Shown here piece after piece: positions 509 through 1,374 of a stretch of DNA of 2,233 nucleotides (positions are counted from its first letter, which is position 1; each line of letters begins with the position of its first letter). Origin of the DNA: Naegleria gruberi (taxonomy: Eukaryota). Location: assembly GCA_000004985.1 (NCBI GenBank), contig GG739276.1. One strand, 5' to 3'. The notes below the pieces were generated by a model. The model ran no database searches and had not been told where the DNA came from. It saw nothing but the letters and a program-made list of their open reading frames with translations. Made by a program: the position numbers and the translations under genes.

Positions 509-579
509 ATTTAATAAACAGTAATTTAATAACCCAATTTATTATTGTTATTTGGTTGTTGAAGTCATCTTCCAAATTA

Positions 580-611
580 GGAAGTTTCATTCCCGGTACC
601 CATAGTATGAA
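580..611 (+). repeat. Conserved 32-nt 3' module, copy B: ggaagtttcattcccggtacccatagtatgaa
   Basis: Near-identical to 231-262. Differs by A/G at position 5 and G/A at position 25. Confidence 0.6.
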
Positions 612-771: not shown

Positions 772-802
772 GGAAATTCAATTCCCGGCACTCGAGTAAT
801 AA
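772..802 (+). repeat. Diverged copy C of the 3' module: ggaaattcaattcccggcactcgagtaataa
   Basis: Shares GGAAAT-TCA-TTCCCGG-yAC with copies A and B and carries a perfect T-loop-like TTCAATT. The 3' half has diverged (CACTCGAGTAATAA). Followed immediately by T-runs. Confidence 0.4.
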
Positions 803-971: not shown

Positions 972-1082
972 AGAGCTGTGCCAAATCAGAATTTGACCTT
1001 ATTGTCAGTTCTGAGTTTCAATCCATTATCTAGATATTTGGAAAGCATTGGACAAGGTGCCTTTGGATCTGTTTTTAAATGT
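972..1082 (+). CDS. Stop-to-donor reading frame (no ATG; bounded upstream by the TGA at 969-971, so this is only the maximal open extent and the true exon start is unknown) encoding a protein-kinase glycine-rich loop (subdomain I): RAVPNQNLTLLSVLSFNPLSRYLESIGQGAFGSVFKC. Likely an exon fragment of a kinase gene or pseudogene.
   Basis: The frame with codons at positions congruent to 0 mod 3, for example tat-ttg-gaa at 1035-1043, is open from the stop at 969-971. IGQGAFGSVFK (1047-1079) matches the kinase consensus [LIV]GxGxFGxVxK, with an aromatic residue (Y) a few residues upstream as in many kinases. There is no ATG in frame. The frame is followed at 1083 by GTAATG (a 5' splice-donor-like site) and reaches a stop at 1131 if unspliced. 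Confidence 0.3.
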
Positions 1083-1134
1083 GTAATGCTCAATTATATC
1101 CACACCTCAATGCCCTCATTAATAATATTTTAAG
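1083..1134 (+). other. Candidate 52-nt intron (GTAATG...TTTTAAG) that would join the kinase-like exon in frame to ORF 1138-1374
   Basis: GT at 1083-1084 and AG at 1133-1134. Length 52, and 52 mod 3 = 1, which converts the frame of the upstream exon into the frame of the 1138-1374 ORF. Pyrimidine/T-rich 3' end. The AAG acceptor is atypical. Inference only. Confidence 0.2.
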
Positions 1135-1374
1135 AGTTTGGAAATGGACGAAATTTATATCATTACTGCTGATTTTGGTTCTATTCAAAACTCCAATAAT
1201 TCATGTGAATGTAGTCAATCCAAAAGTATTTCATATCTCAATGTTAAATTGCAATCCAATCACGAAAAAAGGGAGAAATTTCTCTGTCGTTTGTTCTCCA
1301 CTTGCATTCAGATAATTATAATAAATTACAATTATATTCTCTTATTAATAGAACAAACTCTATCTACTGCGTGA
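1135..1374 (+). CDS. Hypothetical ORF/exon (SLEMDEIYIITADFGSIQNSNN...) containing an ADFGS (DFG-like) motif at 1171-1179. Possible continuation of the kinase-like fragment.
   Basis: Corresponds to track ORF 1138-1374. I-I-T-A-D-F-G-S resembles kinase subdomain VII, but it would lie only about 13 residues after the Gly loop, with no VAIK, HRD or APE motifs. The C-terminal half is low complexity (IIIINYNYILLL). Confidence 0.15.
   Translation, partial: SLEMDEIYIITADFGSIQNSNNSCECSQSKSISYLNVKLQSNHEKREKFLCRLFSTCIQIIIINYNYILLLIEQTLSTA

Follow-up and report, generated by a model that had tools for sequence, protein, structure and literature searches.

A kinase-like glycine-loop motif in a short open frame that may be an isolated exon or exon relic

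The ATP-binding glycine-rich loop of eukaryotic protein kinases (subdomain I, strands β1–β2) is marked in the family PF00069 by GxGxxG followed by a valine, and its consensus reads [ILV]GxGxFGxV[YF]K. Some 2% of the genes of eukaryotes encode protein kinases, which hold one Gly loop each. The described proteins to which the locus presented here was compared are Wee1 (human WEE1, PDB 1X8B and others), TTK/Mps1, leucine-rich repeat (LRR) proteins, and a kinase from the metagenome locus L001 (Ga0194116_10038894). The latter was the single result of a pattern scan of the JGI metagenomes, and is a true kinase locus unrelated to ours. Its positions 553–3416 are occupied by two adjoining kinase genes in a protist-like intronless arrangement: a CK2-alpha-like gene, listed as two adjacent ORFs (553–900 and 905–1675), and a gene for a second kinase of 572 aa, which contains LGRGAFGSVFKC and KIADFGSAE and holds LGRGAFGSVFKCQKDTGEIFAVK as its Gly-loop-to-β3 stretch.

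The window, that is, the whole stretch of DNA that was analysed, comprises 2233 nt with ~33% GC. Stops interrupt all six of its frames, which stay closed under the alternative genetic codes tried (ciliate and others), and its longest open segments reach 82, 78, 74, 72, and 71 codons. The features discussed below are collected in Table 1.

Table 1. Coordinates of the features described in the window.
Feature	Position	Strand	Remarks
ATG-less open frame	972–1082	+	Encodes RAVPNQNLTLLSVLSFNPLSRYLESIGQGAFGSVFKC; candidate internal exon or exon relic
Core motif IGQGAFGSVFK	1047–1079	+	Resembles the glycine-rich loop (subdomain I, β1–β2) of eukaryotic protein kinases
GT..AG interval, proposed intron of 52 nt (GTAATG...TTTTAAG)	1083–1134	+	GT at 1083, AG at 1133–1134
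ORF2 (SLEMDEIYIITADFGS...STA-stop)	1135–1374	+	ADFGS at 1168–1182
tRNA-Asp(GTC) gene, split in the T-loop	123–180 and 777–796		Called as tRNA-Asp by ARAGORN once the pieces are joined
Two 42-nt units in the insert	221–262 and 570–611		88% identical; third, diverged copy at 762–803
Near-perfect short hairpins	335–395, 491–508, 651–669, 689–706

The kinase-like frame is preceded by a TGA at 969–971. Its peptide includes LSFNPLSRYLESIGQGAFGSVFKC and ends in LSRYLESIGQGAFGSVFKC, and GTAATG lies directly 3' of it, at 1083. The GC content of the frame is 0.36, versus 0.24–0.25 in the stretch 5' of it, and AG dinucleotides that could act as 3' splice acceptors end at positions 989, 1008, and 1033. 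The sequence-only reading had reported a frame without ATG ending at GTAATG, with the subdomain I peptide IGQGAFGSVFK, and the sequence and its translation bear out both statements. The motif fits the PF00069 consensus at each position, with GxGxxG and the following valine contained in IGQGAFGSV at 1047–1073. The lack of an ATG, the GTAA directly 3', and the several AG acceptors upstream are features in favour of an exon.

From this, we infer that the frame (probably just ~1009–1082) may be a kinase-derived coding segment for the Gly loop. The segment would constitute one small internal exon, terminated by the GT at 1083, and would belong to a kinase gene with other exons beyond the 2.2-kb window or represent an orphaned exon relic. 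A 5' splice donor at the GT of 1083 is plausible. No second GT occurs from the motif to the in-frame TAA at 1131–1133, and GTAATG matches the usual GTRAGT only in part. We favour the explanation of a lone Gly-loop exon, or a relic of one, that derives from a kinase and has its partner exons outside the window or has lost them, with about an even chance that it is correct.

The rarity of the motif and the identity of its neighbours both speak for this explanation. To model chance, the window was simulated 20,000 times with a first-order Markov model and translated in six frames; the pattern [ILVM]G.G.[FY]G.V appeared three times (~1.5e-4 per window), and its extension by [FYW]K never did (0 of 20,000, under 5e-5 per window). 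All 22 PDB matches to the 23-aa core of the peptide (E ≤ 10) are kinases, and each of them is aligned at its own Gly loop. Pkinase is also the sole Pfam family reported for the 53-aa read-through peptide, over profile positions 4–20, at 12.4 bits (E 0.1), below the gathering score of 31.7 bits for this family. The alignment of the kinase-like peptide to a kinase alignment with hhalign yields a probability of 77%, for residues 22–45 only. On an in-house kinase HMM, built from 120 kinases, the frame scores 4.3 bits, a value reached by 7.7% of the simulated windows. In the Pfam scan, neither the spliced product nor ORF2 nor exon 1 by itself has a match, and no domain, Pkinase included, is detected in the six-frame Pfam scan of the window. 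Thus, the earlier statement that the motif is unlikely by chance stands as far as its frequency is concerned (~1.5e-4 per window), but no homology statistic for the Gly-loop peptide reaches significance, neither for Pkinase (E 0.1) nor in PDB (E 0.05–0.09), and the Pkinase HMM on which that reading proposed to check the exon gives no significant match.

Kinase descent is preferred despite these non-significant scores because of the prior expectation. A random 2-kb eukaryotic window would hold a genuine Gly-loop exon with a frequency of roughly 1e-3, which exceeds the 1.5e-4 to 3e-4 expected by chance, so a genuine exon would be several-fold to tens-fold likelier than the measured chance rate.

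A coincidence in AT-rich non-coding DNA, in which an 11-residue Gly-loop-like string stands by accident next to a chance DFG and an unremarkable GT..AG pair, is the main competing explanation, and we regard it as possible, albeit on the unlikely side. The absence of any significant similarity score and the six stop-filled frames, closed under every code tried, are compatible with it, and predicted proteins nowhere match any open segment of the window. At 1.5e-4 per window, moreover, the scanning of thousands of windows would yield such cases. However, this rate is low for one window, and lower still when the following [FY]K is included; the PDB neighbours are exclusively kinases aligned at the right place, and the open frame around the motif runs up to a GT.

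Searches of large collections bear on the same question. An exhaustive phmmer search with the spliced product, covering 1.84 billion representative proteins, gave one match only and no kinase at E ≤ 1e-3. A 1720-aa bacterial cell-surface repeat protein, which holds nine copies of YKIGTGAFGS...YIITVED, was considered as a homologue and rejected as a coincidence. Its match to IG.GAFGS...YIIT shows the ease with which such strings recur, a point in favour of chance, as is the resemblance of the peptide to an LRR discussed below. A word-indexed search of 5.8 billion proteins and clusters revealed none with even three 5-mers of the 53-aa peptide, and the same kind of search with the 20 longest six-frame segments, concatenated, gave no match. 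The exact look-up of 10 ORF products of the window in a collection of 15 billion proteins returned none of them. Neither the scans of viral contigs with DNA and peptide patterns nor the scan of GTDB genomes for the exon detected anything, and the peptide turned up in none of the literature searched in full text. The intact relative that the sequence-only reading had proposed to look for is thus missing from the protein, viral, JGI, and GTDB collections, which constitutes weak evidence.

Among single proteins, Wee1 provides the best match (ELEKIGSGEFGSVFKCV, E 0.05–0.09). The segments YLESIGQGAFGSVFKCVM and ELEKIGSGEFGSVFKCVK are identical at 13 of 18 positions, including the unusual FKCV, and the window peptide holds upstream an SRY tripeptide comparable to that of SRYTTEFHELEKIG. 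Unlike Wee1, it lacks the six residues between SRY and LE, and the V of its FKCV falls in the putative intron. The alignment, at E 0.05–0.15, is confined to residues 22–47, and no similarity to Wee1 past the Gly loop (DGC.YAIK, RYFSAW, etc.) was found.

The same peptide can also be read as an LRR coding fragment, in which LSFNPLSRYLESIGQGAFGSV would correspond to L.L..N.L..I..GAF..L, an explanation that we consider very improbable. In phmmer, the 53-aa read-through peptide matches designed LRR proteins best (E 0.038–0.07), through the sum of weak repeats, and RYLESIGQGAFGSV fits x.L..I..GAF..L (or x.L..I..GAF..V). Single matches, however, reach just 3–5 bits, an Arg occupies the position of the conserved Asn, and the 23-aa core retrieves kinases exclusively. 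The unit is single, with no adjacent in-frame repeats: no tandem L..L.L..N.L units were detected by the LRR profile, and no Pfam LRR family was matched at E ≤ 10.

Beyond the Gly loop, the window differs from PF00069 kinases in the lack of the β3 lysine, the αC glutamate, the catalytic loop, a credible DFG context, APE, and DxWxxG. Pattern scans found no VAIK, HRD/HxDxKxxN, APE, or DxWxxG motif in the six frames, no frame with the β3 lysine pattern [VILYFC]A[VILM]K, and no catalytic loop of the form [HY].D[LIVM][KRA]..N or D[LIV]K..N. HxD tripeptides are limited to positions 390, 1305, and, on the minus strand, 396, all of them outside a catalytic-loop context. The sole DFG tripeptide of the plus strand, at 1171–1179 within ITADFGS, is followed by no APE. 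A segment of frame +3 (1248–1445, HLHSD...CFG) was also considered as a catalytic-loop/DFG remnant, and was discarded with 1.7 bits on the kinase HMM, which is noise. These scans, together with the six-frame Pfam scan, agree with the earlier observation that the rest of the kinase (VAIK, HRDLKPEN) is missing. The window cannot be assigned to the kinase family: it shows only one of the defining features and falls short of the HMM threshold. Because the catalytic lysine strand, the catalytic loop, and the activation segment are missing, the window alone cannot make a kinase.

The sequence-only reading had joined the frame to a downstream ORF across a 52-nt intron. The sequence does hold this GT...AG interval, whose excision joins both frames in phase 0 (...GSVFKC|SLEMDEIYIITADFGSIQ...), with a branch-like CTCAT, identified by eye, 15 nt 5' of the AG. 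In-phase GT..AG pairs are frequent in AT-rich DNA, and the pairing of the candidate donor at 1083 with the AG at 1133–1134 is putative. In the predicted spliced product, the Gly loop and β3 are spaced exactly as in TTK (VFQVLNEKKQIYAIK) and in the L001 kinase (VFKCQKDTGEIFAVK), an agreement that is suggestive of splicing, though short.

The proposed partner, ORF2, contains the ADFGS on which its designation as DFG-like was based, and its kinase nature finds no confirmation. Searched alone against PDB, ORF2 retrieved no kinase, and hhalign with an alignment of 35 kinases gave a probability of 2% (P 0.023), with ADFGS set on the DFG/activation-loop region. Its score on the in-house kinase HMM is 0.4–1.9 bits, and 1.8% of simulated long open segments reach 1.9. 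The GC contents of its codon positions 1, 2, and 3 (0.29, 0.30, and 0.28) reveal no coding periodicity, and its length is ordinary here, as four other open segments span 71–78 codons. RNA structure is not indicated for 972–1374 (z −0.52).

A different register appears when the spliced product is aligned by phmmer and Smith–Waterman, where EIYIIT...SISYLNVKLQ is placed on β3 and αC of TTK (IYAIK...EIAYLNKLQ). In these alignments EIYIIT fits β3 (IYAIK in TTK/Wee1, EIFAVK in L001) at least as well as ADFGS fits DFG. The spliced product would thus be collinear with the TTK/Mps1 N-lobe over the Gly loop, β3 (IYAIK/IYIIT), and αC (EIAYLNKLQ/SISYLNVKLQ), and the score of ORF2 against TTK, collinear through αC, is 46 (p 0.01 against shuffles). 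However, TTK was picked post hoc from the whole PDB, the match of the spliced product amounts to 13.7 bits (E 0.5), ORF2 alone fails to retrieve TTK, and the positions aligned to the catalytic Lys and Glu hold Thr (in IYIIT) and Ser, respectively. With WEE1 or the L001 kinase in place of TTK, the comparison against shuffles yields p 0.92 and p 0.53, respectively. A complete N-lobe in ORF2, comprising β3, αC, β4 ('RLFS'), and β5, was considered and rejected as pattern-seeking, because it needs three gaps, is backed by TTK only while WEE1 and L001 fail, and is placed in a register other than the one favoured by profile methods. The kinase evidence for ORF2 is at noise level, and the DFG and β3/αC registers contradict each other; most likely, it is a chance ORF in non-coding DNA, unrelated to the Gly-loop frame.

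For these reasons, a decayed kinase gene of two exons, with 972–1082 spliced over the 52-nt intron to 1135–1374, appears improbable. It would take one of two forms: either the N-lobe is kept, with EIYIIT as β3 (Lys to Thr) and SISYLNVKLQ as αC (Glu to Ser), or an internal deletion has fused β3 to the DFG segment. The spacing shared with TTK and L001, the TTK score, and the GT..AG ends with their branch-like site fit such a remnant, as does the fact that exon 1 and ORF2 are the top two of 104 six-frame segments on the in-house kinase HMM. Against it stand the post hoc choice of TTK, the failure with WEE1 and L001, and the absence from ORF2 of a PDB kinase, a consistent register, a codon-position bias, or an unusual length. 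Modelled by AlphaFold from the single sequence, the spliced product is all-beta at low confidence (pLDDT 56), and Foldseek found no kinase neighbour for the model in PDB, an uninformative result. Furthermore, uniform pseudogene decay does not yield a perfect Gly loop next to an unrecognisable rest, a combination that argues against a uniformly decayed pseudogene including ORF2. A lone exon, followed by a long intron leaving the window or by unrelated sequence, fits better. The model of exon, 52-nt intron, and DFG exon is therefore left unsupported. The sequence-only reading had offered three options (a remnant, an isolated exon, or a chance pairing), and its identification of the Gly loop is borne out on the level of the motif.

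Expression of the 116-codon spliced product as a lineage-specific mini-protein, holding the Gly loop and a β3/DFG-like segment with the catalytic residues lost, is scarcely credible. If true, the product would be a truncated pseudokinase-like nucleotide-binding peptide encoded beside a disrupted tRNA gene.

This tRNA gene lies upstream of the frame, and no tRNA is detected by ARAGORN or Rfam in the intact window. The 5' part of the split tRNA-Asp ends in TTCAATT (174–180), and the same 7-mer recurs at 777–783. CCCGG-CACTCGA-G comes next and pairs with TCGGGTG in the 5' acceptor. This arrangement implies an insertion of 596 nt (181–776), similar to a retroposed or SINE-like element, that is flanked by a duplicated target of 7 bp and is A-rich at its 3' end (CTAAAAAAGGAAA). 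The insert folds better than 100 of 100 shuffles (z −3.25). Each 42-nt unit is composed of a TTCC-N6-GGAA hairpin and, after it, TTTCATTCCCGGTACCCAT, a sequence reminiscent of another tRNA in its T-arm and acceptor 3' end (acceptor TACCCAT, not CACTCGA). These serial copies of a tRNA 3' end suggest that a tRNA target repeatedly underwent insertion or duplication. A 19-mer of the tRNA-like repeat has three bacterial matches in GTDB, about the number estimated by chance. The short hairpins include AGTGACC-TGAA-GGTCACT, AATGACTGT-A-ACAGTCATT, and AGTGACC-TTAC-GGTCACT, and there is an exact 13-nt duplicate, TTGGCGTCACGGT, whose copies are 48 nt apart. The disrupted tRNA-Asp, with its insert and the extra copies of tRNA-like 3' ends, corresponds to the 'tRNA-derived repeat array' described upstream. 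For the proposed decay of the kinase-like frame in association with repeats it provides context only, and a causal link between the repeats and the frame cannot be shown.

At the other end of the window, positions 1900–2200 form a purine-rich stretch on the plus strand, with positive GC and AT skew. It exhibits repeated AGATGAAGAC/ATGAAG motifs and a tandem 9-mer at 2158–2178, and no protein or Pfam match was found for it.

The kinase-like frame raises no new biological question. If the similarity is due to chance, the case illustrates that an 11-residue 'perfect' motif, a DFG, and a GT..AG pair can mimic a gene model in AT-rich DNA. If the frame is real, it would add another exon or exon relic to the protein kinases, a very large superfamily, and its use would be limited to genome annotation.
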